55,913 nucleotides of DNA, taken from IMG/VR virus record IMGVR_UViG_2778261121_000001, positions 1-55,913 of that record; one strand, written 5' to 3'. Below the pieces are notes generated by a model. The model was not told the DNA's origin and made no database searches. It saw only the letters and a list, made by a program, of their open reading frames with translations. A program made the position numbers and the translations under genes. The stretch's first letter is position 1; each line of letters starts with the position of its first letter. This stretch comes from a virus. Lineage: Duplodnaviria; Heunggongvirae; Uroviricota; Caudoviricetes. Of the stretch, positions 1,586-49,211 are shown in pieces.

Positions 1586-3619
1586 TTACTTAACTTGGTG
1601 GCCTGGTTTAGCACCAGCATCCGGGCTTAACAGGAAGATATCTTTCCCACCGGGGCCAGCAGCCATCACCATACCTTCGGAGATACCGAAGCGCATTTTA
1701 CGCGGAGCCAGGTTAGCCACCATAATGGTGTGACGACCAATCAGTGCCTGTGGGTCTGGATAAGCAGAACGGATGCCTGAGAAGACATTGCGTTTTTCAC
1801 CACCTAGATCCAGCGTCAGACGCAGCAGTTTGTCAGAACCTTCAACAAACTCTGCGTTTTCAATCAGCGCCACGCGCAGGTCAACTTTGGCGAAGTCGTC
1901 AAAGGTGATAGTTTCCTGAATCGGGTCGTCAGCCAGTGGGCCAGTTACCGGTGCGGCTGTGGCTTTCACTTCTTCTTTGGATGCTTCCACCAGTGCTTCA
2001 ACCTGCTTCATATCGATGCGGTTATACAGTGCCTTGAACGGATTCACTTTATGGCCCAGCAACGGTTGCTGGATGCCATCCCAGGTCAGTTCTGTATTCA
2101 GGAATGCTTCTGCACGTTCAGTCAGTTTCGGCAGTACCGGCTTCAGGTACGTCATCAGCACGCGGAACAGGTTAATGCCCATAGAGCAAATCGCCTGCAG
2201 ATCGGCATCGCGTCCTTCCTGCTTCGCCACCACCCACGGAGCCTGTTCATCGACATAGCGGTTAGCCAGGTCAGCCAATGCCATGATTTCACGGATAGCT
2301 TTACCAAATTCACGGCTTTCCCATGCTTCGCCAATCACTTCAGCGGCATCAGTAAAGGTTTTGTACAGTTGCGGGTCAGCCAGTTCGCTTGCCAGCACGC
2401 CGTCAAAACGCTTGTTGATAAAGCCTGCATTACGGGAGGCCAGGTTAACCACTTTGTTCACGATATCGGCATTCACGCGCTGAACGAAATCCTCCAGGTT
2501 GAGATCGATATCATCAATGCGCGAAGAGAGTTTCGCAGTGTAGTAGTAACGCAGGCTGTCAGCGTCAAAATGATTCAGCCAGGTGCTGGCTTTAATAAAG
2601 GTGCCGCGAGACTTGGACATCTTCGCGCCGTTCACCGTCACATAGCCGTGAACAAACAGGTTGGTCGGCTTGCGGAAGTTGCTGCCTTCCAGCATGGCAG
2701 GCCAGAACAGGCTGTGGAAGTAAACAATATCTTTACCGATGAAGTGGTACAGCTCGGCGGTGGAGTCTTTCTTCCAGTATTCATCGAAGCTGGTGGTATC
2801 GCCGCGCTTGTCGCACAGATTCTTGAAGGAACCCATGTAGCCAATCGGCGCGTCCAGCCAGACGTAGAAATATTTGCCCGGCGCGTTCGGAATTTCAAAA
2901 CCGAAGTAAGGCGCATCGCGGGAGATATCCCACTGTTGCAGGCCGGATTCAAACCACTCCTGCATTTTATTTGCCACCTGCTCCTGCAACGCACCGCTGC
3001 GGGTCCATGCCTGCAACATTTCGCTGAAAGAAGGCAGATCAAAGAAGAAGTGTTCGGAATCACGCATTACCGGGGTAGCGCCAGAAACCACCGATTTCGG
3101 CTCGATCAATTCAGTCGGGCTATATGTTGCGCCGCAGACTTCACAGTTATCGCCGTATTGATCTGGCGCTTTACATTTCGGGCAGGTGCCTTTTACAAAA
3201 CGATCCGGCAGGAACATGCCTTTTTCCGGGTCGTACAACTGAGAGATAGTGCGGTTTTTAATAAAACCGTTCTCTTTCAGGCGAGTATAGATAAGCTCAG
3301 ACAACTGACGGTTCTCTTCGCTGTGCGTCGAGTGATAGTTGTCATAGCTGATGTTAAAGCCTGCGAAATCAGTCTGGTGTTCCTGACTCATTTCGCCAAT
3401 CATCTGCTCCGGTGTGATACCAAGCTGCTGTGCTTTCAGCATGATCGGCGTACCGTGGGCATCGTCGGCACAGATGAAATTAACCTCGTGGCCGCGCATT
3501 CGCTGGTAACGAACCCAGACATCAGCCTGGATGTGCTCCAGCATATGGCCGAGGTGGATTGAGCCGTTAGCGTACGGCAGCGCGCACGTCACCAGAATTT
3601 TCTTCGCGACTTGGGTCAT
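1586..3619 (-). CDS. metG: methionine--tRNA ligase
   Basis: Translation from [29 protein letters not shown] to the C-terminus matches E. coli MetG almost residue for residue; start set at the MTQ methionine rather than the longer track ORF. Confidence 0.95.
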
Positions 3620-3776
3620 AGTAGGCATTACTTCTTTGTAGTGAAAAGGGGCTTGATAGTAACAAAATGGCCTTATGTCTGCCATGTGATAACAGCATTT
3701 CTCATAAATGATTAAATGTCGTAGCTGGAGTACACTACAAGGCGACAATTGCGCAAATTAAAATAAAGGAGACGGG

Positions 3777-21789: not shown

Positions 21790-22434
21790 CTAATGAACGG
21801 TTACTCGGCCACAGAACCGGTTTTCTATCTTTTCTACCGCGTTATCGAGCATTCTCATTACTGATCTGGCTCTTGCTTCAACTGTGCGATACCGGTTGGA
21901 AACGACGAAGGTTTGCAGATCTCCCCTTTGCGGATGCAGGTGAATTTTTGTCAGTTCCCCGCACATCAACGCATCAATACGAGCGACATACAGACGGTCT
22001 AATGATGCTCGTTGTGACCGCAAGTAATCTCGCTCTGAGAGAGCGACCCCTGGGCGTAGGCCAGCAATGGCGTTAAAGTTTGAAATAGCAGTTTTGTGGC
22101 AAAACTTTTCGATATCGAGGGCTAACTCAATACATCGATCTTCATTGGTATGGCCGACCAAATCCAACGTGTAGGCCATAACATCAGCAGGTGTGCGATC
22201 GATAACAAAGCCTTCAACACCACGCGTAAGTAGCTCTATATGCTTTGCTATTTCCATTTGAATCTGAAGCCGCTCATATAGAGGCATAGACTCACCTACT
22301 CGAACACCGAGTCGGCTCATCAAACTTCCGACACCAGCATCCACGTAAGGGATTCCGTAATGTTTGTCGATATATTTTGCCAGGGTTGTTTTCCCACTGC
22401 CCTGAGCACCAGTGATCCCAATCCGGTAATCCAT
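21790..22434 (-). CDS. P-loop NTPase, probable nucleotide kinase
   Basis: Walker A GAQGSGKTT at the N-terminus; sits in the nucleotide-metabolism cluster. Confidence 0.55.
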   Translation of the reverse strand: MDYRIGITGAQGSGKTTLAKYIDKHYGIPYVDAGVGSLMSRLGVRVGESMPLYERLQIQMEIAKHIELLTRGVEGFVIDRTPADVMAYTLDLVGHTNEDRCIELALDIEKFCHKTAISNFNAIAGLRPGVALSERDYLRSQRASLDRLYVARIDALMCGELTKIHLHPQRGDLQTFVVSNRYRTVEARARSVMRMLDNAVEKIENRFCGRVTVH

Positions 22435-22910
22435 TACGACCTTCTGTATACGATCTGCGAAAAGCCAGGCTCTTCCTCGCTGGCTCGTTGGGTAAAAACT
22501 GTTTCAACAGGCACAAAGCCTAAATTACGCATCATGCTTGCCGGGAAGAATGCATCGGCGTTTGGCACATCAACGCCGATGTGGGAGAGCCAAATCTCTT
22601 CAACATGCGGCATGAATAGCGAGTAAATTTGTTCCCCGCCAATAACCCACACAGGCTCTGGTAATCGCAACACATCATCCACACCAGCAGGGTAGAATCC
22701 ATTTGGTACAAAGCCATGAGAGCGCGTCAAAACGAGGTTATGACGCTCTGGAAGAGGGCGTTTGAGACTTTCCATCGTTTTACGCCCCATAACGACAGTG
22801 GCGTTTTTGGTGAGTCTCTTAAATAGCTTCAGATCGGTAGAACAACGCCAGGGGAGTTCATTCGCTATGCCGATCTCATAGTTACGGCCAACAGCAGCGA
22901 TCATCTTCAT
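22434..22910 (-). CDS. dihydrofolate reductase
   Basis: Aligns with FolA across its length (IG..N.LPW, VMGR.T.ES, VIGG..IY). Confidence 0.8.
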   Translation of the reverse strand: MKMIAAVGRNYEIGIANELPWRCSTDLKLFKRLTKNATVVMGRKTMESLKRPLPERHNLVLTRSHGFVPNGFYPAGVDDVLRLPEPVWVIGGEQIYSLFMPHVEEIWLSHIGVDVPNADAFFPASMMRNLGFVPVETVFTQRASEEEPGFSQIVYRRS

Positions 22911-23368
22911 TTGCTCACCTCATAGATGACCGGTCGATGGTGAGAGTCAGCTAAAGCGGCACGGAGTCGAGGATCGTGCACCAGCGCAGCGATAAGCAGA
23001 TCGCCTTTATGCTCCGCTAATGTGCGCTTAATATGCTTCTCATAACTGGTGCCATTCGGTACAAGATGAAGCCAGTCATAATCAACGCCAAAATCTTTCA
23101 GCCATCGTTTAGTTGGCGCTTCAAGAGTTTCAGAGCGGCTACTGATAAGCACCACTTCAGCCCCTGAGCGAGCAAAACCACGCAACATACGGCTGGTGGG
23201 GAAAATGAGTTCATCACCGGCAATGAGCTGGCCTGCATCCGCGTCAGATACTGATTTACGATGGCTGGCATTTGCCAGCACACCTTCAATTTCGCATAAG
23301 ACATACATACCTCTTGCCATATCACACCGCCACTGGAACCTTGATCCACGGTAGAGGGTCATAGCCAA
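22907..23368 (-). CDS. hypothetical protein (153 aa)
   Basis: ORF in track between the DHFR and thymidylate synthase genes. Confidence 0.4.
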   Translation of the reverse strand: MAMTLYRGSRFQWRCDMARGMYVLCEIEGVLANASHRKSVSDADAGQLIAGDELIFPTSRMLRGFARSGAEVVLISSRSETLEAPTKRWLKDFGVDYDWLHLVPNGTSYEKHIKRTLAEHKGDLLIAALVHDPRLRAALADSHHRPVIYEVSK

Positions 23369-24425
23369 GAATTAAAACCTCGTCCCATTTGAAATCATCC
23401 AACTCTGACCATTCATGAGGGAAAATAACGACCGGATCTGAATGCTCTGGAGCCTGTCGTTTCATTAGCTCACACACACCTTCCATGTGGTTGTTGTACA
23501 AATGCACGTCAAAGCCAAAATGCACAAATGCACCGGCCATGTGACCCGTAATCTTCGCGAGAAAATGAGTGAGAATGCCATAGCCAGCAATATTGAATGG
23601 CATACCAACAAAAGTGTCTACGCTACGCTGTACGAGGCAGGAGTTGAGGATGCGTTTGGGGATTCCAAGTTCATCCAGTTCAGCTTCAGTAACACTGCCG
23701 TCCATATCCAGATCGTATAGCATCTTGGTGTAGATAGACTCGTAACCGAGGCGACTGTGTTGAAGACCAATGTCAGTTGCCATCGTTAAACGGGTTTCAA
23801 AATCCAGCTCACGACTCCACAAAGAGAAGACAAAGTGGCAAGGTGGCAGTTTCATATCCTCAAGCTCGCCTACGTTCCATGCGTTAAGCATGATGCGACG
23901 ATCGGTAGGGTTCGTGCGCAGTGTATCGACAATACGCTGTAGCTGATCGATTTCACGGGACAGCACTACGCGATCTTCACTGATACCCAGGTATCCCTCG
24001 ACTTTGTACCCGCGTTCACGGAAAGTATCGATCTTGCTCAGATATTCACTATGGCTCACGATTCGGGTATCTTCCCATCGACGCCACTGCTTACCGTAAA
24101 CCGGCCCCAAATCGCCATTCTCATCGGCCCATGCATCCCAAATCTTAACGCCGTTATCCTTGAGAAATTGGATGTTTCCCGTGCCTTTCAGATACCACTC
24201 AAGTTCGACAAGTAGTGGCTTAAGATTTACCGCCTTTCCAGAAATAAGCGGCACAGTCCCACCAGTAAGCATGTAGTAAGAGGGAACGTAGCAGGTGCTT
24301 AAAGTACCAGTGCCTGTGCGATCATCAGCCTGCACGCCGCTTTTAAGCACCGTCTCAATAACTTTTGCATACGATGCGTTTGTTACCTGACCGTTCGTAT
24401 GCTCTCGATTCAAAAGGAGTGACAC
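23322..24425 (-). CDS. thymidylate synthase family protein with two large insertions
   Basis: DRTGTGT, WADENGDLGPVYGKQWR and catalytic PPCH motifs conserved; 367 aa versus ~264 for ThyA; GTG start with GAGG Shine-Dalgarno. Confidence 0.85.
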   Translation of the reverse strand: MSLLLNREHTNGQVTNASYAKVIETVLKSGVQADDRTGTGTLSTCYVPSYYMLTGGTVPLISGKAVNLKPLLVELEWYLKGTGNIQFLKDNGVKIWDAWADENGDLGPVYGKQWRRWEDTRIVSHSEYLSKIDTFRERGYKVEGYLGISEDRVVLSREIDQLQRIVDTLRTNPTDRRIMLNAWNVGELEDMKLPPCHFVFSLWSRELDFETRLTMATDIGLQHSRLGYESIYTKMLYDLDMDGSVTEAELDELGIPKRILNSCLVQRSVDTFVGMPFNIAGYGILTHFLAKITGHMAGAFVHFGFDVHLYNNHMEGVCELMKRQAPEHSDPVVIFPHEWSELDDFKWDEVLILGYDPLPWIKVPVAV

Positions 24426-24595
24426 AAAAACCTCACAAAGATAAGTAATTACTTATTCATCGTGTGAGTTTACATTCATTGAGAGAACAAGACCAGACAG
24501 ATAAAAAAATGGTGGCCATAGGCCACCAAAACGAATAGTCATTCCAGAGTTTTATTACGCATGTTAAATATACACAGATAGATAACTACCTACAA

Positions 24596-25465
24596 TTATT
24601 TTTTGATCATTCCGTACATTGCTGAGGCTTTAGCTTGCTCAACAAAGGAGGATAAATCGACATCACTATAGGTTGGAGACTTCAGAATCTTTCCATCGGA
24701 AATTCGAAAACCGATCATCTTATCGGTACCATCAGCATGGCGAAATCCCAGGTCTGAAGAGTCGTATTTGCAGTTGGCCACAGCCTGGCGACGTTCCTCT
24801 ACATCAGCAGGCCATAATTTTGTCATGTTAGACCGATGAATTTCGCCAACCAGCTCGACTACATTGATACCGAGGAAATCAGCCAGTCGATAGGTCATCA
24901 TGCACGCCACATAGATTTTGTTCATGACACGGCGCAGTTCCTGAATCAGCTCAGAATCCTTAACAGTCTTGTTCTCAAGTTTATCTGCCAGCTCTTCGAG
25001 CATACATGACGCCTCACGAGCTTCCTGAAATGGCATTGCCATATCATCGAAAACAGTGTTACCGGGCACAAAAATTGTCTGCATAAAGCGATCAATGCTC
25101 TGTTCCTGCGTGTAATAGGTCATGCCGGTAGAAATACCACCTTTGATGGCGACCATCGTACCAACACCAACGTATAAAAAGTCGGCCATTGCATCCAGCA
25201 GTTGCTCAATATCCCCATTCATTGCGGCTGGAATACCTTCCACTACAGCTTCTTCATGAATCAGGCTTGCACGGAGACGAAGCAGCTCTGGTGTCGGCAT
25301 AACGCGTCTCGGATGCTGGAAGAGTTCATGAAACTGATCGACCATCTTGTAAATACTTTCAGTAGCTACACCATGACCTTCATGCAACTCATATGGTTCT
25401 GGCTTAAATCCAATGAGACGATCGGTGGCAAGTTTCAGGTGGTCAGTCAGTTTGGTAAAGTTCAT
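24596..25465 (-). CDS. hypothetical protein, possibly a tandem MazG-like NTP pyrophosphohydrolase
   Basis: Weak by-eye resemblance to EExxE/D-containing all-alpha NTP-PPase repeats. Confidence 0.35.
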   Translation of the reverse strand: MNFTKLTDHLKLATDRLIGFKPEPYELHEGHGVATESIYKMVDQFHELFQHPRRVMPTPELLRLRASLIHEEAVVEGIPAAMNGDIEQLLDAMADFLYVGVGTMVAIKGGISTGMTYYTQEQSIDRFMQTIFVPGNTVFDDMAMPFQEAREASCMLEELADKLENKTVKDSELIQELRRVMNKIYVACMMTYRLADFLGINVVELVGEIHRSNMTKLWPADVEERRQAVANCKYDSSDLGFRHADGTDKMIGFRISDGKILKSPTYSDVDLSSFVEQAKASAMYGMIKK

Positions 25466-25542
25466 GCTAGTTTTGTTCCTTCTTAATTCTTGTGATCCAT
25501 TGTGGCCCAGCGTTGCCAGGCCACATAATGCTTTGTATCGGT

Positions 25543-26685
25543 TTACAGGTCTGCAAACTGGCTTAGAGAAGCCTTATCCACGGTAGAATCGATCTGACCT
25601 ACCAGATATGTGCTTTGCTCTGCCTCTTGTGGTGCAATTTGCAGTGTGTCGGTTAACAACCACTTGTTCATCCAGACCAGCGGATCTGTGGTAACTTCTG
25701 GAAATAAAGCCTTCAGGCCAAGACGATTCATAGCCAGATTGGTGCGGTATTTTACATAGGTCTTCAGAATATCCGCGTTTAAACCAATCATCGAACCGTC
25801 TTTGAAGAGATAGTCTGCCCAGTTCATTTCTTGTTCGGCGACTGATTTCATGGTGTCGTAAATGACGTTTTCTTCATCAGCAGCAATCTCTTTCCACAAT
25901 AAGCCTTCGCGACCGGTACGCATGAAGCGGATCATGCGTTCAGTTCCTTCGCAATGCAGAGCTTCATCACGGGCAATAAAGCGCATAATTTTGGTGTTAC
26001 CCTCAAGCAACTTCCGTTCGCCAAAGGCAAACGTACATGCAAAACTTACATAGAAACGGATCGCCTCAAGCGCATTAATGGACACCAACGTGCGGAAAAG
26101 CTGACGGTGCAAAGGGTATGGCTCCCAGCCATATTCATTTACGTACAGACGTTCAAACTCTTTCTCACCTAACGACTGGCGCTCGCAGGTCATCCCATAA
26201 AGCCTGTCATATTCAGCAGAGATACTGATCGCTCGGTTGATGATTTCTTCATCCGTAACAATACCGTCAAAAACAATACTCGGATCGTCCACCATGCCAC
26301 GAATAATGTGGGTGTAGCTGCGGCTATGGATAGTCTCAGAGAAAGACCATGTTTCAACCCACGTTTCCAGTTCAGGAATAGAGATAAGCGGCAGAAGCGT
26401 TGCATTTGGGCTACGTCCCTGAACTGAATCGAGTAACGTTTGATAACGGAGATTGCTCAGAAAAATGTGACGTTCGTGGTCCCGCAGCTTCGTGTTGAAG
26501 TCGATACGATCACTCGAAATATCAACTTCTTCCGGCCGCCAGAAGAAAGACAATTGACGTTCAATCAACTTTTCAAAATCACGGTATTTTTGCTGATCGT
26601 AACGTGCCACGTTGACAGATTGTCCGAGGAACATAGGCTCTTTGGTTGCATCATTAGCACCCAAACGGAACGTTGAATATGACAT
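25543..26685 (-). CDS. nrdB: ribonucleotide reductase class Ia beta subunit
   Basis: 380 aa; resemblance to NrdB recognised by eye; conserved start context and 5'-leader motif. Confidence 0.85.
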
Positions 26686-26785
26686 GTGTTTTTCCTTTTT
26701 TGATGTGTTTAAACAAGTTGTTATCTTATGTGTTTAAACAAGGCTTACAAATCAAAGATAAGGTGGGGATATACCCCACCATATG

Positions 26786-29101
26786 TCAGATTTTGCAGGC
26801 TCCGTCGCACTCATCTTCTGGCTCGACGGCTACAGCTTGCGTAAGTGGATTCTGCGCTTCGTCGTCATCACGCTTTCCTGCACCATCTCTGGTGTTGTGG
26901 TAGTAAAGCGTTTTAACTCCCATCTTGTAGGCGAGAAGCAAATCTGACAGTAGCGTCATCATTGGGACTTTATCGCCTTCAAAGCGAGAAGGGTCATAGT
27001 TGGTATTGGCTGAAATAGCCTGGTCAAAGAACTTCTGGATGATCGCCACCTTTGTCAGATAGCCGCGGTTGTCCGGCATATCCCACAGGTATTCATACTG
27101 TTCCTTCAGTTTTTCAAACTCAGGCACGACCATCTTAACGATGCCGTCCTTAGAAGATTTCACCGACACCGGTCCACGAGGCGGTTCGATGCCGTTGGTG
27201 GAATTAGTGATCTGGCTGGAAGTCTCGCATGGCATTTGTGCCGTCAGTGTGGAGTTGCGAAGGCCGTATTTTGCAATACGTTCACGCAGTTCTTCCCACG
27301 GCATCTTTAACTCAAAGTTGGTTTCGCCACTTTCGTCTAATGAAGAACGGTAATGGTCGATCGGCAACTGACCAATTGCGTACTTGGTCTGCTCAAACCA
27401 GTCACACTCACCTTTTGCTTCAGCAAGTCGGCAGCTGGCATCAAGAAGGTAATACTGGATAGCTTCGAACGTTTCATGCACCAGTTTATTGCCAGCGGTA
27501 TCAGAATAATGAACGCCATTCTTTGCCAGGTAATAAGCAAAGTTGGTTACACCAATTCCCAAGCTACGACGAGCTTTGGCAGGCACTTCGGCTGCCTCCA
27601 TCGGATAGTCTTGATAATCCAGTAACGAATCCAGTGCAGCAACGGCATAGAACGCCACCTCTTTAAGAGACTCCAGTGAACGGATGGCTCCGAGGTTAAA
27701 AGCGGATAAAGTGCATAGCGCGATCTCACCGTTCGGGTCGTCGGTAAATGCCAGTGGACGAGTGGGTAGAGTGATCTCCATGCACAGGTTTGACTGGCGA
27801 ACAGGTGCAAGAGCAGGAATGAAAGCGCCATGCTCGTTAATATGATCGACGTTCGCAATATAAATTCGGCCCGTGGACGCTCGTTCCTGCATCAGAGATG
27901 AGAACAGCTCAATGGCAGGTACTGACTTCTTGCGAATTGAATCATCGGCTTCGTATTTATGGTACAGCTTTTCAAACAGCTCCTGGTCTGTGAAGAAGGC
28001 TTCGTACATATCAGGCACATCATGCGGGCTGAACAGAGTGATGTTCTCGCTTCTGACGAGTCGACGGTACATTAGACGGTTACTCATGACGCCGTAATCA
28101 AGATGGCGAACGCGGTTTTCATCAATACCACGGTTATTTTTCACCACCAGCAGACTTTCAACTTCAAGATGCCAGATCGGGTAAAACGCTGTTGCTGCGC
28201 CACCACGAACACCACCTTGCGAACAAGATTTAACAGCCGTCTGGAAATGCTTCAGGAATGGAATAACTCCAGTATGGGTGGCTTCACCATTGCGGATCTC
28301 GCTGCCCAGCGCACGGATACGGCCAAAACCAATACCAATTCCAGCACGACGTGAAACGTAGTCGATAATTGCGGCTGAAGCTGCACTAATCCCTTTCAGA
28401 CTATCGCCAGACTCAATCAGCACACAACTGGAGAACTGACGGGTTGGAGTACGGACGCCGGCCATGATTGGTGTGGGCAGAGACAGTTTGAACGTACTTG
28501 TAACGTCATAGAAACCTTTGACCATCTCCATACGTGTTTTGCCAGCGCAGTCGTCTTCCCAATTCTGGAACAGACACATGCCTACCAGCATATAGATATG
28601 TTGCGGCCCCTCATGAATCTCACCAGTAACACGGTTTTGAACGAGGTATTTGCTTTGCAACTGCACCGTAGCTGCATAGCCAAAAAGATCGTCACGTTTC
28701 GGCTTAATGTAATTGCCGAGTTCTTCGATCTCTTCAAACGAATAATGTGTCAGCAAATCCTTGTCATAAACGCCCTTGTTAACGTTCTTGACAATATGTT
28801 GGTAGAAGTTCGGATAGTCGTAACGACCGAAGGCATCTTTGCGGATTTTAAAAATGTTCAGGCGGGCAGCCACCTGTGAGTAATTTGGTGCTTCTGGTGA
28901 GATCAAATCAGCGGCAGATTTAACCAAAGCCTCATGCAACTGGCTGGTGGTAATCCCATCAAAAATGCTGGCCGCAGCTCCCATTGCTACAGCGGATGCG
29001 CTTACACCACGAATGCCTTCTACGCCATACATTACGACGCGGTTGTATTTTTCTTCGGATAACGGCTCTGTTTGGCCGTTACGTTTTACGATGCTTATCA
29101 T
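26786..29101 (-). CDS. nrdA: ribonucleotide reductase class Ia alpha subunit
   Basis: 771 aa aligning with E. coli NrdA through the active site and C-terminal CxxC tail. Confidence 0.9.
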   Translation of the reverse strand: MISIVKRNGQTEPLSEEKYNRVVMYGVEGIRGVSASAVAMGAAASIFDGITTSQLHEALVKSAADLISPEAPNYSQVAARLNIFKIRKDAFGRYDYPNFYQHIVKNVNKGVYDKDLLTHYSFEEIEELGNYIKPKRDDLFGYAATVQLQSKYLVQNRVTGEIHEGPQHIYMLVGMCLFQNWEDDCAGKTRMEMVKGFYDVTSTFKLSLPTPIMAGVRTPTRQFSSCVLIESGDSLKGISAASAAIIDYVSRRAGIGIGFGRIRALGSEIRNGEATHTGVIPFLKHFQTAVKSCSQGGVRGGAATAFYPIWHLEVESLLVVKNNRGIDENRVRHLDYGVMSNRLMYRRLVRSENITLFSPHDVPDMYEAFFTDQELFEKLYHKYEADDSIRKKSVPAIELFSSLMQERASTGRIYIANVDHINEHGAFIPALAPVRQSNLCMEITLPTRPLAFTDDPNGEIALCTLSAFNLGAIRSLESLKEVAFYAVAALDSLLDYQDYPMEAAEVPAKARRSLGIGVTNFAYYLAKNGVHYSDTAGNKLVHETFEAIQYYLLDASCRLAEAKGECDWFEQTKYAIGQLPIDHYRSSLDESGETNFELKMPWEELRERIAKYGLRNSTLTAQMPCETSSQITNSTNGIEPPRGPVSVKSSKDGIVKMVVPEFEKLKEQYEYLWDMPDNRGYLTKVAIIQKFFDQAISANTNYDPSRFEGDKVPMMTLLSDLLLAYKMGVKTLYYHNTRDGAGKRDDDEAQNPLTQAVAVEPEDECDGACKI

Positions 29102-29118
29102 GTATCACCAAATAAAGA

Positions 29119-29140
29119 GGGCCACTAAATATAGTGGCCC
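29119..29140 (-). promoter_or_regulatory. hairpin in the nrdA 5' leader
   Basis: GGGCCACT-loop-AGTGGCCC followed on the minus strand by UCUUUAUUU; lies between the operator-like motif and the nrdA start. Confidence 0.4.
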
Positions 29141-39643: not shown

Positions 39644-41983
39644 TTACTCTTCTACTGACTCGGTGGGATTGTCTTTTGATCTCCGGTCGTCGATTGCCTG
39701 TAAAGCCGCAATGATTTCAGCTAGTGGCTTCTCCCGATACATCTCGACGATCTGTGATTTGGTGTATTTCTTGTCACCAATTTCTACTCGACCGCTGGCG
39801 TTCTTTGGCAGGTATCCTTCTTCCAGCATGTACTCGACGAGCGATTCGATAACGTCGAGGCCACGAGTAGGATCGAAGTAGAATTTCCAGGTGCATTTGC
39901 CATACGGTGGTGCAACTTTGTTTTTGATGCATTCTGCGCCTACGTCCTGGCCGATCTTCTCTTTACCATCCTTCATCACCGATGCACCAAGACGGATACG
40001 TACAGAAGCGTAGAACTTCGGTGAATCTCCACCTGGCGACGTAGTAGGGTCGCCAAACATTACACCGATTTTTGTGCGAACCTGATTCAAGAAGATGATG
40101 CAGGCGTTGTATTTGCGTGCCCACAAAGCCAGAGTAGGGAAGTTCGCACTCGTCGCACGAGCCAGTGCCGTATTGTCGTTCATGTTTAGCTGATCTTTGT
40201 CTTTGGCTGTGCCTTCAGCCATCTTTTCGAACTTCTCGGCTTTGGAGTTCGGAACCATAGACGCAAGAGAGTCAGCCACGATACAGATAGGTGCTGATTC
40301 GGGGATAAGCTCTTCATCACGAACCAATTTAAGTATTGTGCCGATCAACTCTACAGAGTCTTCGAAGGTATCTGGCTGCTTGTACACCCACTGACCGTCA
40401 TCCTCATCTGCGTTCAGGCCATTGGCTACAGCCAGGCCAACGTCAAAACTGTTTTCATGATCGAGGAATACCGCCAGACCATCTTGTTTTTGAGCGGAGA
40501 TCATCGCTGCTGTTGCAAGGAATGTGTTGTGGCTGATAATCCCGTTAGACCAGAAAGAGTGTGTTTCCGGCATCGCTACGTCGAACGTTGGTGCTTCACC
40601 TTCCTCAATAGCCACGACTTCGTCGTAGAACAAGTTAGAGCCAATTACCGCTGCCAGTTGTGCAAACAGATGCTCGTTAAAACGATTCTTTCTGCCAATG
40701 AAGGAGACATAGATTTCTCGCAGTTTGTCTATTCCGACACGATCGCCGCGGCCAATAACGTGGTCTACCAGAGCGTAGTCTTCACGGGTGGTCTTGGTGA
40801 GCGACTCGTAGAGTGATTTCACTAAGCCGCTGATGTGCGGAACATAGCCTGAGTAAGTGCGGTCAAAACCAATGTCCCGTTTGGTTGCCACTGATAAACG
40901 TGCCGGAGATTCGAAACCAATCGTTGACAGAAAAAGGTCGTAATTAGAGCCACTGAATGACAGCCGGTAATATGTATTTTCATAACCCGCGACGTGTTTT
41001 TCAGAGATAGTTGACGTAATCCCCAGATTCAGGAGCATGAGGCGAATTTGCTGTAGCAGCAGCCCACTCGCGCTCACAACCTCAATGCAGCGACCATCAT
41101 TGACGTGGCATTCCAGCTCAAAGTAGCCGCGAAGGAATGCAATTTGAGCCTCGCTATTGGCGCGACGCACACTCAACGGAACCTGCTTGCCAGCAGCTTT
41201 CTCATACTCCAGACCATATTCTTTAAAAAGCAGCGAACGCACCTCTTTGCTAAACAGCACATGGTCTTCCGAGCCGTTATGTTTTCTCGTAACTGGCATC
41301 TTGTCTGATACCAGCGAAATGAGGCGGTAGTACTCATCCTTGATGAAAGGATCTGTGTTAGAAAAATTCACTGAATTTTCAGAGGCCACGTATCCGTCAG
41401 CAATTAAATAGCCCATCAGTTTTGCGATATTGGCATCCAGGTGCTGATCGCCGAATTGATGTGTGCCAACCATTGAAGGAATCGTGTCGCCTACACTGAT
41501 TTTTTCAGCATGTCGCCAGACGACATTACCTAAGTCGTCAACCACACGGATTGGGTGACGGAACGTAGCCTCGATATAACCGCCTGATGCCAGCTTAATA
41601 CGCTTGAATTTGCGATGGTTGTTCCATGTCAGGTGTGAGGTCTTCTCTATCACGCCATTTTCATTGATGAGTCCAACGTTATGCTCTACATCGCGAGTAG
41701 TGCATGTCGCTTTGTACCCTTCAATCTCAAACAACTCTTTCACTGTTACCATTCCACGCTCCGTCAGCAGCATGGTGTCTGCGGTAACACATTTCCCCGC
41801 ACTTGGAGGACCGAATACTTCGACGATACGACCACATGGGAAGCCGCCATCGTAACGACCGGAAATAGCTTTGTTTAACGGAGGAAAGCCTGTGTCAATC
41901 CAATGAGTTACTTTCTGAATTTCGTCGTTGCTACCGATTTTCTTTTTCAGAGCAAGTGCCAGTGCGGATTTTCCTTTTGCCAT
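39644..41983 (-). CDS. RecA-like recombinase interrupted by an intein
   Basis: Exteins (64 + 293 aa) give a RecA-sized protein with Walker A GPPSAGK|TFLAT split by the intein. Confidence 0.8.
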   Translation of the reverse strand: MAKGKSALALALKKKIGSNDEIQKVTHWIDTGFPPLNKAISGRYDGGFPCGRIVEVFGPPSAGKCVTADTMLLTERGMVTVKELFEIEGYKATCTTRDVEHNVGLINENGVIEKTSHLTWNNHRKFKRIKLASGGYIEATFRHPIRVVDDLGNVVWRHAEKISVGDTIPSMVGTHQFGDQHLDANIAKLMGYLIADGYVASENSVNFSNTDPFIKDEYYRLISLVSDKMPVTRKHNGSEDHVLFSKEVRSLLFKEYGLEYEKAAGKQVPLSVRRANSEAQIAFLRGYFELECHVNDGRCIEVVSASGLLLQQIRLMLLNLGITSTISEKHVAGYENTYYRLSFSGSNYDLFLSTIGFESPARLSVATKRDIGFDRTYSGYVPHISGLVKSLYESLTKTTREDYALVDHVIGRGDRVGIDKLREIYVSFIGRKNRFNEHLFAQLAAVIGSNLFYDEVVAIEEGEAPTFDVAMPETHSFWSNGIISHNTFLATAAMISAQKQDGLAVFLDHENSFDVGLAVANGLNADEDDGQWVYKQPDTFEDSVELIGTILKLVRDEELIPESAPICIVADSLASMVPNSKAEKFEKMAEGTAKDKDQLNMNDNTALARATSANFPTLALWARKYNACIIFLNQVRTKIGVMFGDPTTSPGGDSPKFYASVRIRLGASVMKDGKEKIGQDVGAECIKNKVAPPYGKCTWKFYFDPTRGLDVIESLVEYMLEEGYLPKNASGRVEIGDKKYTKSQIVEMYREKPLAEIIAALQAIDDRRSKDNPTESVEE
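40526..41791 (-). mobile_element. intein with LAGLIDADG homing-endonuclease domain (422 aa)
   Basis: Starts with Cys after GPPSAGK, ends with HN before Thr; LAGLIDADG-like blocks (LMGYLIADGYV, FLRGYFELECHV). Confidence 0.7.
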
Positions 41984-44959: not shown

Positions 44960-46129
44960 TCACGTCTTAATAGTTTCTGCTACGTCGGCTAATATAGCTT
45001 CTAGTCGTTCTCCCTCTTCAGGTCTGAAGTAAAGAATGTTGGGGTTAAACCCGTAAAAGACAGTAACGTCAAGGTCTGGAAGATACTCCTTCCTGCCGAC
45101 CAAATCGGATGGCTTGTTTTTGTTGTTAAACAATGAAGTTGCCCGGCTGCCACACGTCAGCACATAGGTCGGACGCACCAGATTGATCTCTTCACGCATA
45201 AAGTCGGTGAACTGGCCGATCTCGTCTTTGGTGTAGTCTTTTTCTTTGTCTTTAACCTTCTTGCAAACGCCTGTGACATAGAGATCGCCCATGCGTAAAT
45301 CTCCAGCCGTCAATAGCTTGGCCTTAAAATCGTCGTATCCGTTCTCCATAAAGTAACCGGTTCGAGCATCATTGCCGTTCGCATTGTCCAGAATGATCAT
45401 GATTTTCGGCTTAATACCAATGCTGGGGCGGATTAGTTCATCACCTAAGCCCATTTCAGCCGCCATCCGTGTCATGAGCACGTTAATCTCAGCCGAACGT
45501 TTGGGGTTCATCTCAAACGGACGTGAGGCTTTAACTGCGTCTATGACAAGATTTCCCATCAATTCAGCCTGGTCGCGTAGGCGCTCTGGATCAGTTGCTG
45601 GCAGACTACCTGGCTCGATGGATGCAAACGCCCCTACTTTTTGCAGCGATTCGCGCACTCGACTATTACAGGCACGTTTCTCGACAGCTTCTTCGAATTG
45701 CGCAAGTGACTCGAATTTGCCACCAACCTTTTCTCGCGCTCTCATGATGGCCTGGCAGCCATTCTCAGAACACCCCTTCACAGCAGAGAAGGGCGCATAC
45801 AGCACCTGGCTGCCATCTTCAAGCGTGCGGATCTCGATTCGGTTAGATGACACGTTAACGTCTGGTGGCAATACGCGAATACCATAGGTCAGCGCATCTT
45901 TAACCAGCCCCTGGTGTTTATCTTCGCCAAGAATAGTGAGAGCAGCAGCGAAAAACTCTGCGGGATAATGAGTTTTCAACCACATAGATTGATAACTGAT
46001 CAAGGAGTAAGCAACAGAGTGTGATTTGTTAAAGGCGTATCCACCGAACTTTTCAAAGGCGTCCCATATTTCCTGGGCTTTCTCAGGGCTAAGACCTTCC
46101 TGCTCGGAAATAACTTTTGCAATTTTCAT
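44960..46129 (-). CDS. DNA polymerase III alpha (DnaE) C-terminal fragment
   Basis: Begins MKIAKVI...FEKFGGYAFNKSHS, aligning with the DnaE fingers region; own ATG in the conserved GGGAAAACACATG context. Confidence 0.75.
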   Translation of the reverse strand: MKIAKVISEQEGLSPEKAQEIWDAFEKFGGYAFNKSHSVAYSLISYQSMWLKTHYPAEFFAAALTILGEDKHQGLVKDALTYGIRVLPPDVNVSSNRIEIRTLEDGSQVLYAPFSAVKGCSENGCQAIMRAREKVGGKFESLAQFEEAVEKRACNSRVRESLQKVGAFASIEPGSLPATDPERLRDQAELMGNLVIDAVKASRPFEMNPKRSAEINVLMTRMAAEMGLGDELIRPSIGIKPKIMIILDNANGNDARTGYFMENGYDDFKAKLLTAGDLRMGDLYVTGVCKKVKDKEKDYTKDEIGQFTDFMREEINLVRPTYVLTCGSRATSLFNNKNKPSDLVGRKEYLPDLDVTVFYGFNPNILYFRPEEGERLEAILADVAETIKT

Positions 46130-46149
46130 GTGTTTTCCCGTTGCTAGCT

Positions 46150-46851
46150 TCAAATGCTTGCTTTTTTTAAGATATTTGCGATTTGAGTGTTAGATATGCC
46201 GAATTTTTCTCGCAACTTTTCGTAGGTTGCGCCAGCTTTGCGCAAGGCGACCACTTCAGCTCTTGCTTCGTCATCCAGCTTTTTGGATGCCCTTGAGGCA
46301 ACGATCGGCCCACCAATACGTGCCCATTTCTTCCCGGTGACGATATGGTGAATATAAAGCTCAGTTAAACCATATTCGGCCGCGAGGTCTTTGTTCAGAG
46401 CACCCTCTGACTTTTTAATGCGAATAGCAATGACGACTTCGTTGGTTAGCTTGGCGTTGTAGCGCCTCTCACCAAACTCAACGGTATCGTGTGCAATGGC
46501 GTCAGCCATGTTGTCGACTTGAGTGCCATACGCGAGATTGAAGGGCGCATTGTTTGATGGTTTACCGTCAAGATGACGAATAAGTAAGCCTTCTGGTCGT
46601 TCTCCGTGGAATGCAGTTGCTACCAGATAATGAACTGTGCGGTCGTATTTGACGCCGTTGACGCTTAGTTTCACGCCAAGATGTCCAAAATCATTGATTA
46701 CGCGAGGTTTTAGGATTTGCCCCTTCTTCACCCATTCGCCCCCTTTGGGGGCTGTTTGTATAACATCTAATGAGCGAATGCGTCCTAAACTGGATGCTTC
46801 GTAATAACCTTCAAATTCAGGAATAGATTTCCAAACTTCTTCCACCGTCAA
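46150..46851 (-). CDS. HNH homing endonuclease inserted within dnaE
   Basis: 233-aa ORF in a different frame from both dnaE halves, overlapping the upstream stop and ending 18 nt before the downstream ATG; family assigned from the split-gene context, no HNH or NUMOD motif checked. Confidence 0.6.
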   Translation of the reverse strand: MTVEEVWKSIPEFEGYYEASSLGRIRSLDVIQTAPKGGEWVKKGQILKPRVINDFGHLGVKLSVNGVKYDRTVHYLVATAFHGERPEGLLIRHLDGKPSNNAPFNLAYGTQVDNMADAIAHDTVEFGERRYNAKLTNEVVIAIRIKKSEGALNKDLAAEYGLTELYIHHIVTGKKWARIGGPIVASRASKKLDDEARAEVVALRKAGATYEKLREKFGISNTQIANILKKASI

Positions 46852-49211
46852 ACTCCAAAATCAACAATATCAGCGTTGTCACTCATCGCTTCGTCATAGG
46901 TCCTGCGTTTGCCGTCAGAGCACAGCAGCATGGCCTTTTTGTGGACTTCTACTGTGCTTCCGTCTTCAAGTGACAGTGTCACCCAGCCTGCTTGTGCTCG
47001 TTCTACAAAATCGCTGCCGATCGCTTTCATCTTTTCCATGTTCTTCTTACCGATGGCGGAACGCAGAGCATCAGCCTCCGCCATAGAGAATCCAGCGAGC
47101 ACACGAGAGCTTTTCATAATTTGCTCTTGATAGAGCAAAACGCCGTTAGTTTCTTTGGTTGTTTCCTCAAGACGAGGATGAATTGAATGTGGAGCCATAA
47201 AACCTTTGGCGACAGAAACATAGTCATCCAACATGCCTGACTGAATTGGCCCCGGCCGGAAGAGCGCAGTTGTAGCAACAACCGTTTTAAAGCTCATTGG
47301 CTCAATTCCACCACCTAAATCTTTAAGCAGCTTGCGCATTGGGCCTGATTCAAGCTGGAAAACACCTTGAGTGTACCCAGCAGCAAAACCATCCAGCACC
47401 TTGCGATCCTCAAGAGAAATGGCATCAAGATTGATATCTTCACCTGTGTTCTCTTTTATGTAGCGTTTTGCACTATCGAGCAAATCGAGAGTTGCCAGGC
47501 CAAGCACGTCTAGCTTAATTAGGCCCATAGCCTCGCAGTAACGCTTGTCAAATGCGATACAACGCGCGTCACCACGGCGTTCAACCGGTGTACGTTCTGT
47601 CAGAGGAACACCTGCTACGATCATCCCTGCCGCATGTCTACCAAAGCCACGCATAAGGCTTTGTAACTTGCAGGCTGCATTGAATGCATCAGGATATTTT
47701 GTTGCGTATTTGTCGAGACTTGCCAGTTGTTCGCGCAGCTCTTCCAATGGAAGGCTATCATCCTCGACGTTCTTCAGTTCTTTTGATACCGCCATATCTG
47801 CGGACTCCACACCATAAATACGAGCGGTGTCACGTAGTGCAGAGGCTGCGCCCAGGTAGGTGAAGTTCGGAATGCCTGCAACGTAATCTTCGCCGTAGCG
47901 TTCATTCAGATACTCGATCACCTCATGGCGACGTGCCTGGCTGAAGTCCAAGTCCGCATCTGGCAAGTCGAGACGCTCAGGGTTGATGAAACGCTCAAAC
48001 AGAAGACCGTGACGGATTGGGTCGACGTTGGTTATGCCTATGCACCACGCCACCAGAGAACCGGCAGAGGAACCACGACCAGGCCCGACAGGAATGCCAG
48101 TTTCACGGCTGTGATTCATCAGATCGCGTACCATCAGGAAGTAACCACAAAATCCCAGGCGAGTCAGCGTGTCCATTTCGTACTTAAGCCGTTCAACATA
48201 AATCCTGTTCTCAGAAGCCGGTGGTGTGTAGCCAAACTCTTTTGTGGTAAGACGTTTACGCAGCCCAGCAACGGCCAGTTTCATCAGCGTTGCAGGCTCG
48301 TCGTCTGCCATCTTTGGCAGTGCTGGTGGCAATTCATGCCAGCGCCATGTGCAGGCATCGATAATGGTATCCTGCGTTGTTGAGGCCATTGCAGCTGTTA
48401 CCGGCACATCCATGCGAACGGAGAAGGCTTTAAGAGCCTCAAGGAGATGGCGGCGACCATTGACGGCGTTATCTCGCTGGTGGGGGATACGCAGACGATG
48501 CGGCTGGTCGATTTTGATGTTGTTCGTAACCATGTGCGCAATGTCTTTAATGTCTGCATCGTCGATCGATTCGTAATAAGCGGGATAGAACGCTACTGGC
48601 TCTATTTTCAGTGCTCTGGCGACTTTCATCGCCCGGACGTTAATCTGGTCGTAGAATGGTGTAGGGTGCGGATAAACCACACTATAGAAGTTGTCTTTTC
48701 CACCTGCTGTAATCAGTGAGCTTATGATTTTTGCAAAATCGTTGCGTTGGAACACGCTACCGATGTCGGAAGTGAGCAGGATGATGTTGCCTTTGGCATA
48801 TGTAGAAACCAACTGTTCGAGCGAGAGACGCGGTACAAAGTAGAACTGTTCTCGTGTGTTGGCCACCGTCATTAGTTCGCAGATGTCGCGATATCCTTGC
48901 TCATTTTTAATTAGAGCGGTAAACGAGTAGTTACGTCCTCGCTCTAATGATTCCATACATCCCTTAGACTCTTTAGCAAGTTTAGCCCGGTACTCGTATG
49001 TGGGATCATCAACGATATTTAGTTTCACACCACAAATAACCGCCATGTCGTCACCAGCGGCACGTTGTAGTGGAATAACACTCGCAATATTCATGCTATC
49101 TGCTGAAATTACAGCGGTGTAGCCAGCTTCTCTGGCAATCTTCACCGCGTTTTCCGCTTTTAAAGCCGACTCCCCAAGTGAGAAGTCAGTTCGAACCATC
49201 AGTGCCTTCAT
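46848..49211 (-). CDS. DNA polymerase III alpha (DnaE) N-terminal fragment (PHP and polymerase core)
   Basis: 787 aa aligning with the DnaE N-terminal two thirds; conserved start context. Confidence 0.85.
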   Translation of the reverse strand: MKALMVRTDFSLGESALKAENAVKIAREAGYTAVISADSMNIASVIPLQRAAGDDMAVICGVKLNIVDDPTYEYRAKLAKESKGCMESLERGRNYSFTALIKNEQGYRDICELMTVANTREQFYFVPRLSLEQLVSTYAKGNIILLTSDIGSVFQRNDFAKIISSLITAGGKDNFYSVVYPHPTPFYDQINVRAMKVARALKIEPVAFYPAYYESIDDADIKDIAHMVTNNIKIDQPHRLRIPHQRDNAVNGRRHLLEALKAFSVRMDVPVTAAMASTTQDTIIDACTWRWHELPPALPKMADDEPATLMKLAVAGLRKRLTTKEFGYTPPASENRIYVERLKYEMDTLTRLGFCGYFLMVRDLMNHSRETGIPVGPGRGSSAGSLVAWCIGITNVDPIRHGLLFERFINPERLDLPDADLDFSQARRHEVIEYLNERYGEDYVAGIPNFTYLGAASALRDTARIYGVESADMAVSKELKNVEDDSLPLEELREQLASLDKYATKYPDAFNAACKLQSLMRGFGRHAAGMIVAGVPLTERTPVERRGDARCIAFDKRYCEAMGLIKLDVLGLATLDLLDSAKRYIKENTGEDINLDAISLEDRKVLDGFAAGYTQGVFQLESGPMRKLLKDLGGGIEPMSFKTVVATTALFRPGPIQSGMLDDYVSVAKGFMAPHSIHPRLEETTKETNGVLLYQEQIMKSSRVLAGFSMAEADALRSAIGKKNMEKMKAIGSDFVERAQAGWVTLSLEDGSTVEVHKKAMLLCSDGKRRTYDEAMSDNADIVDFGV

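Follow-up and report, generated by a model that had tools for sequence, protein, structure and literature searches.

The minus strand between positions 21790 and 29101 of the viral DNA record IMGVR_UViG_2778261121_000001 (the whole stretch of 55,913 nucleotides is called the window here) carries seven co-oriented genes that very probably serve an SSU5/pHCM2-type phage-plasmid as its module for deoxynucleotide supply, making canonical DNA precursors and above all dTTP. The genes were recognised from the listing of open reading frames (ORFs) and from scans against Pfam, PHROG and NCBIfam, and follow the order nrdA-nrdB-mazG-thyA-HAD-dfrA-kinase. They are listed below, together with the features located within and next to the thymidylate synthase (TS) gene.

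26786..29101, minus strand: NrdA, large subunit of class Ia ribonucleotide reductase (RNR), 771 aa (PF02867, E = 2e-131; PF00317; PF03477)
25543..26685, minus strand: NrdB, small subunit of class Ia RNR, 380 aa (PF00268, E = 4.5e-46; phrog_86, E = 1e-144)
24596..25465, minus strand: MazG-like all-alpha nucleoside triphosphate (NTP) pyrophosphohydrolase, 289 aa (PF01503, 35.6 bits versus a cutoff of 21.3; phrog_671, E = 1e-47)
24510..24528, minus strand: terminator-like GC-rich hairpin followed by a T-run, in the gap between the MazG-like gene and thyA
23322..24425, minus strand: thymidylate synthase of the ThyA type, 367 aa (PF00303, E = 2.3e-78; TIGR03284)
23958..24059, minus strand: ThyA insert 1, residues 123-156
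23838..23840, minus strand: codon of the catalytic Cys196 (E. coli C146), in the motif PPCHF
23649..23810, minus strand: ThyA insert 2, residues 206-259
22907..23320, minus strand: HAD/PNKP-phosphatase-like protein, 137 aa (phrog_5387, E = 5e-90; PF25109, 22.8 bits, under the cutoff of 27.6)
22434..22910, minus strand: dihydrofolate reductase (DHFR) of the DfrA51 type, 158 aa (PF00186, E = 2.9e-34; NCBIfam trim_DfrA51)
21790..22434, minus strand: P-loop kinase, 214 aa (PF13521, AAA_28, 38 bits versus a cutoff of 27)

A pathway can be proposed from this gene set. NrdAB would reduce ribonucleoside diphosphates and the MazG-like enzyme may turn dUTP into dUMP, which the enlarged ThyA, as judged from its conserved active site, would methylate with methylene-tetrahydrofolate to give dTMP and dihydrofolate. 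DfrA51, the activity of which has been demonstrated for an orthologue, would recycle the dihydrofolate, and the AAA_28 kinase, encoded by the last gene of the thyA-HAD-dfrA-kinase unit, is predicted to phosphorylate dTMP or other deoxynucleoside monophosphates (dNMPs), with the host Ndk finishing the pathway. Such a scheme would explain how phage-plasmids of the SSU5 type can provide their own Pol III-type replisome with more dTTP.

Organization and distribution of the block

The assignment of the RNR to class Ia was based on the presence of the ATP-cone (PF03477), all-alpha (PF00317) and barrel (PF02867) domains in NrdA and of the ferritin-like small subunit (PF00268) in NrdB, all of them scoring above their cutoffs. 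An earlier note on this DNA had named the kinase, DHFR, ThyA, MazG-like and NrdBA genes, and all of them were found at the coordinates listed above on the minus strand; its list was incomplete, as the seventh gene, the HAD-like ORF at 22907-23320 between ThyA and DHFR, had been overlooked. The description of the region as a T4-like block for precursor synthesis in that note was well founded, since the genes for DHFR, TS and NrdAB lie together, as they do in T4-type phages (a Tevenvirinae phage, for example, has frd-td-nrdA). In the frd-td-nrdA-nrdB cluster of the Tevenvirinae phage MX01, DHFR, TS and a class Ia RNR are likewise grouped for precursor supply. The dNMP kinase of T4 lies outside its frd-td-nrdA-nrdB cluster.

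The four genes from thyA to the kinase constitute a translationally coupled unit, with junctions of the form TGA-n-ATG, ATGA and TAATG: the HAD-like gene starts 1 nt past the ThyA stop codon, the start of dfrA overlaps the stop of the HAD-like gene (ATGA), and the stop of dfrA overlaps the start of the kinase gene (TAATG). The unit opens with a GTG start codon for thyA, preceded by a GAGG ribosome-binding site. GC-rich hairpins followed by T-runs were detected on the minus strand at 29119-29140, 26762-26780 and 24510-24528, that is, before nrdA, in the gap between nrdA and nrdB, and in the gap between mazG and thyA. The location of these three sites suggests three transcription units, consisting of nrdA, nrdB-mazG and thyA-HAD-dfrA-kinase.

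The whole 7.3-kb region showed 99.1% DNA identity to Escherichia phage Cyrano, which is the same element as plasmid pLF82 of E. coli LF82, 98% identity to three further E. coli phage-plasmid records, and 77% to Salmonella phage SSU5. Gene order is identical in the phage-plasmids of the Cyrano, SSU5 and pHCM2 type, within whose blocks nothing of substance differs from ours, and the same order was found in a Klebsiella phage-plasmid. Moreover, the half of the block from thyA to the kinase gave matches in 680 plasmids of PLSDB, mostly non-mobilizable and of 100-115 kb, from Klebsiella, Escherichia, Enterobacter, Salmonella and Citrobacter. Cyrano has been described as an inducible SSU5-like siphovirus that is maintained as a plasmid at ~5.5 copies per cell in LF82 (PMC9928086). 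Given these near-identical annotated relatives and the 680 plasmid matches, the block is a known and routinely annotated part of a widespread SSU5/pHCM2-type phage-plasmid of E. coli, and the significance of the present analysis beyond a tidier annotation is small. In the Cyrano record (OV696614.1) the ThyA-type enzyme is labelled "ThyX Thymidylate synthase" and the kinase "ABC transporter ATP-binding protein", labels that both mismatch the family hits.

The thymidylate synthase active site and base modification

ThyA scored far above the thresholds of both family models, with 263.5 bits for PF00303 (cutoff 24.3) and 219 bits for TIGR03284 (cutoff 108), and in a MAFFT alignment, which covered all 264 positions of E. 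coli ThyA, 119 were identical (45%). The residues of TS that were found to be kept are, in E. coli numbering, R21, E58, W80, W83, Y94, R126', R127', L143, C146, H147, Q165, R166, S167, D169, F176, N177, H207, Y209 and V262. The catalytic Cys, which the earlier note had described as retained, is indeed present as Cys196 in PPCHF (codon 23838-23840), and the remaining catalytic and phosphate-binding equivalents are R36, R176, R177 and R267 (the Arg quartet R21, R126', R127' and R166 of the E. coli enzyme), Y110, E74 and D270. Residues orienting the cofactor correspond to W96, W99, L193, F277 and V365 (W80, W83, L143, F176 and V262), and the C-terminus is free and ends in ...PVAV, as in the ThyA-type enzymes that close the active site with it. 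With regard to specificity, Asn278 and His197 occupy the places of E. coli N177 and H147, which are the positions that distinguish uracil-specific from cytosine-specific enzymes (PMC8670742).

A signature of 12 active-site residues was shared by practically every complete homologue, whether it has the inserts or not, the sole change being Q165M in five of them. An AlphaFold2 (AF2) model built on a 23-sequence alignment had a predicted local distance difference test score (pLDDT) of 91.5, and a Foldseek search of the Protein Data Bank (PDB) superposed its core on E. coli TS with a template modelling (TM) score of 0.94 when normalised by the target and 0.68 when normalised by the query. Experimental data on this ThyA or its close relatives were not found in a literature search. 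From the fully conserved active site we infer that ThyA makes dTMP by the normal TS chemistry. The genetic context points the same way: as DHFR is required only where folate is oxidised to dihydrofolate, a step of thymidylate synthesis that hydroxymethylation lacks, the coupling of thyA to a DHFR of functional type favours true TS chemistry over hydroxymethylation.

The enlarged TS homologue and the dedicated kinase had been taken in the earlier note as possible signs of altered specificity or of hypermodified DNA bases, a proposal that found no support here. Put in full, it would make the ThyA homologue a dUMP or dCMP hydroxymethylase, or an altered pyrimidine-C5 transferase, which together with the kinase and the MazG-like and HAD-like proteins replaces thymine, as in SPO1, M6 and ViI. 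The gene set does have a superficial resemblance to the SPO1 scheme in containing a TS homologue, an NTP pyrophosphatase, a phosphatase-like protein and a nucleotide kinase, and both of the experimentally established dUMP hydroxymethylases, M6 gp58 (351 aa) and SPO1 gp29 (383 aa), whose roles have been described together with that scheme (PMC8989533), likewise exceed ThyA by ~100 aa.

Alignment of these two enzymes with the ThyA of the window and with E. coli ThyA showed that they have in common with our protein the TS fold and the conserved Cys, Asn177, R166, S167, D169 and Y94, but that they differ in lacking W80 and in carrying Y/F83, D143, N147, N165 and A176. Moreover, their extra length consists of a long C-terminal extension that replaces the C-terminus of TS, and they have no internal inserts. 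None of this signature (absence of W80, W83Y/F, L143D, H147N, Q165N, F176A, C-terminal extension) appeared in ThyA, which has the TS residue at every position where SPO1 gp29 and M6 gp58 deviate and, with N278 and H197, is of the dUMP type; BLASTP aligned it only in part with M6 gp58, at merely 21% identity over 156 residues. On the grounds of the residue signature and of the location of the extra length, dUMP hydroxymethylase was rejected as the identity of ThyA. The presence of Asn278 instead of Asp at the N177 position led to the rejection of dCMP hydroxymethylase and dCMP methyltransferase in the same way, and with both N177 and H147 retained dCMP would not be a substrate.

The partner genes lend no more weight to the proposal. 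The kinase was rejected as a 5-hydroxymethyluracil DNA kinase (5-HMUDK) of the M6 gp54 type, because BLASTP and hhalign aligned residues 1-24 only, so that the P-loop is all that both have in common, and the HAD-like protein is without the catalytic Asp. A dedicated kinase is in itself no sign of modified bases, since T5 and T7, phages with canonical DNA, encode nucleotide kinases too. As for companion genes, neither those for aGPT-Pplase, glycosyltransferase, pyridoxal phosphate (PLP), radical S-adenosylmethionine (rSAM) and TET/JBP enzymes, nor those for dCMP deaminase, dTMPase or 5-HMUDK, which would serve in thymine exclusion or hypermodification, are annotated in the whole genome of the 99%-identical Cyrano, and no base-modification gene was found among the 18 nearby ORFs of the window that were scanned against Pfam. 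A search of the literature for enlarged TS, or for DNA modification, in SSU5 or pHCM2 returned nothing. Hydroxymethylation, moreover, would not require the functional DHFR to which thyA is coupled. Replacement of thymine by this set of proteins is highly improbable, and the canonical sequence of ThyA removes a tempting but unfounded lead to a new DNA hypermodification.

The inserts of the phage-plasmid thymidylate synthase

The excess of ~100 aa over ThyA had been ascribed in full to two internal insertions. The length was confirmed and the cause only in part: compared with E. coli ThyA the protein has 103 extra residues, 85 of which lie in the two inserts, with 15 in an N-terminal extension (residues 2-16) and 3 in small indels. 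In a phmmer comparison with PDB sequences, the match to E. coli ThyA was broken into three pieces, revealing both inserts. Insert 1, of 34 aa (residues 123-156), enlarges the small hairpin located between E. coli residues 102 and 106, and forms a beta-meander plus two short helices in the AF2 model. Insert 2 (residues 206-259) adds 51 net residues at the beta-hairpin turn formed by E. coli residues 154-159 and was modelled as three helices. Both would be surface additions, placed on loops remote in sequence from the catalytic residues.

The 15-aa N-terminal extension and the 34- and 51-aa inserts set the phage-plasmid ThyA apart from E. coli ThyA and the other solved ThyA-type enzymes. No solved TS with a counterpart of either insert was detected by sequence search of the PDB or by Foldseek, which returned ordinary TS only from that database. 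A known domain was rejected as the source of the inserts, as scanning just the two insert peptides against Pfam at E<=10 produced chance hits only. An intron was discarded too, Rfam giving no hit at gathering thresholds across the whole window, and an intein or intron is further opposed by the in-frame position and the conservation of the inserts and by the high confidence of their models. They are not those of T4 Td either, because the extra residues of T4-type Td (Tevenvirinae phage MX01, 286 aa) are located at three other sites, with none at the site of either insert.

Counterparts were found instead in the long TS of jumbo phages. The closest predicted viral structures retrieved by Foldseek were of this kind, namely A0A1C3NFC4 (query-normalised TM score 0.87), 201phi2-1 (0.82) and Yoloswag (0.77). 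The enzymes of Pseudomonas phage 201phi2-1 (B3FJL1), Seoulvirus SPFM21 and Erwinia phage Yoloswag have insertions in both of these places, with common motifs in insert 1 (DT+xV...GY) and insert 2 (S/TxE..ER and LD..IP+R.L), but differ in that identity is just 24-38% and some are bigger (457-471 aa). The neighbourhood of these long TS genes is not conserved, since the TS alone is homologous and the flanking genes are not. Insert-bearing TS was encountered in SSU5-like elements of many Enterobacterales and also in distant phages, such as Seoulvirus SPFM21 (38% identity) and the phiKZ-like jumbo phages, and in a metagenomic phage contig its gene has those for a canonical thymidylate kinase and an RNR nearby. 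To score co-occurrence, we took the 117 full-length proteins among the top 120 homologues and counted an insert when it measured at least 15 aa: both inserts were present in 51 of the 117 and neither in 60, and the remaining 6 had only one.

These data establish the inserts as a real, conserved and homologous feature of a subfamily of phage-borne TS, in which the catalytic residues are unchanged. They most likely form a composite subdomain serving stability or protein-protein contacts, with the chemistry unaltered. That this surface subdomain has a function of its own in the TS of SSU5-type elements and jumbo phages, for example in docking or in the evasion of a host factor, is a tentative idea that we consider possible and somewhat doubtful. 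If docking were its role, DHFR, the kinase, RNR or the Glu-variant HAD-like protein could be joined with TS in a complex synthesising deoxynucleoside triphosphates (dNTPs); if evasion, the inserts would escape a host factor that targets TS. In any case, the insert-bearing enzyme is a minor structural variant belonging to a widespread phage subfamily with ~85 extra residues, and the novelty that remains is modest.

Partner proteins of the block and other features of the window

The HAD-like protein was compared with Pnkp1 (PDB ID 4xrp), in which CDLDGTL stands opposite CEIEGVL. Its motif I therefore reads E-x-[E/D]-x-V (here E-I-E-G-V) in place of the D-x-D-x-T of HAD phosphatases, and the Glu at the position of the nucleophile did not vary among 14 homologues, the most distant of which was 42% identical. 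The family seems to be restricted to SSU5-like elements. Judging from this motif, the protein is probably not a conventional phosphatase and may be an accessory protein.

The MazG-like protein exceeded its Pfam threshold, and its acidic helix motifs HEEAVVE and DIEQLLDAMAD align to those of DR2231 from Deinococcus, the best solved relative, although the match is weak (E ~1e-3). Compared with DR2231 the protein is about twice as large; the match is split by an internal insert of ~80 aa and followed by a C-terminal extension of ~70 aa, and the neighbour of thyA is thus enlarged too. DR2231 was reportedly described as a dUTPase by Goncalves and colleagues in 2011. By analogy, the MazG-like enzyme is probably a pyrophosphatase of dUTP, or of another non-canonical dNTP, that would give dUMP.

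The DHFR matched the NCBIfam exception model trim_DfrA51 at 334.1 bits (cutoff 322), and the reference protein of that model is the SSU5 orthologue. DfrA51 was first described from the phage-plasmid SSU5, and on expression this orthologue behaved as a functional, trimethoprim-insensitive DHFR, raising the trimethoprim minimum inhibitory concentration of E. coli 64- to 128-fold (PMC12217456). With dfrA51 the block includes a trimethoprim-resistance allele that is tracked clinically. One might suppose that the retention of the block owes less to lytic replication than to its action on the host while the element is a plasmid, by way of DfrA51-mediated trimethoprim tolerance and extra dNTPs. The size of the resistance increase and the maintenance of the element as a stable multicopy plasmid (~5.5 copies per cell in LF82) both speak for this view, but an earlier study found that a DHFR of the SSU5 clade conferred no resistance (PMC7725336), and the block sits within the replication and recombination gene region of the element and is common to strictly lytic jumbo phages. 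We regard such a plasmid-state role as unlikely to be the main reason for the retention of the block.

The kinase has the motif GAQGSGKTT, an invariant DRTPxD and the LID-like residues R139 and R142, and hhalign lined up its sequence from the P-loop through DR...AY with a phage thymidylate kinase. The features of thymidylate or dNMP kinases, namely the NMP-kinase fold, the P-loop, the DR-type motif and the LID arginines, were all present, and PF02223 was not matched. Its AF2 model (pLDDT 87) resembled deoxynucleoside kinases, thymidylate kinases and the ribosylnicotinamide kinase (RNK) domain of NadR about equally, with TM scores of 0.55-0.65. A profile search for stand-alone kinases of the AAA_28 family yielded 2488 representatives with an E-value cutoff of 1e-3 and 860 with one of 1e-10; of the relatives that were sampled, 45/45 matched AAA_28 and 44/45 matched PHROGs labelled "thymidylate kinase". 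The labels attached to these relatives, "AAA family ATPase" and the PHROG "thymidylate kinase", are generic or unverified.

The kinase might then act outside dTTP synthesis, either as a kinase of ribosylnicotinamide or other small molecules of the NadR/AAA_28 type, or as a deoxynucleoside salvage kinase that merely shares the operon of thyA. This would agree with AAA_28 (NadR/Ttd14 type) being the sole Pfam family above threshold, with NadR ranking third in the fold search, and with the scores of all NCBIfam kinase equivalogs, which fell far under their cutoffs. It is at odds with the translational coupling of the gene to dfrA51 and thyA, with the alignment of DRTPxD...AY to the DR motif of thymidylate kinase and with the PHROG matches, for all that "thymidylate kinase" is a predicted label. 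A role apart from dTTP synthesis is thus a real but minority possibility, and the most economical reading of the sequence and the model is that the enzyme is probably a dTMP or dNMP kinase.

Some points weigh against the region being a supply module for canonical precursors. The assignments of ThyA, the kinase, the MazG-like and the HAD-like proteins are predictions from sequence and fold, the kinase fold fits deoxynucleoside, thymidylate and NadR ribosylnicotinamide kinases about equally well, so that its substrate is only putative, and the role given to the ThyA inserts is purely conjectural. Nucleoside analysis of the virion DNA of any SSU5-like element was not found in the searchable literature.

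Several other genes of the window had features of their own, all on the minus strand. The gene for the Pol III alpha subunit (DnaE) is split at 44960-49211 into an N-terminal ORF of 787 aa (46848-49211) and a C-terminal one of 397 aa (44960-46153), and between the two pieces lies a free-standing HNH_3/NUMOD4 homing-endonuclease ORF (46150-46851). The DnaE of Cyrano, unlike this split gene, is a single ORF of 1168 aa. In a RecA homologue of 779 aa (39644-41983), an intein bears an endonuclease domain of the LAGLIDADG type. At 1586-3748, where the local GC content is higher, the phage-plasmid encodes a methionyl-tRNA synthetase of full length that includes a tRNA-binding domain and is annotated in Cyrano too.

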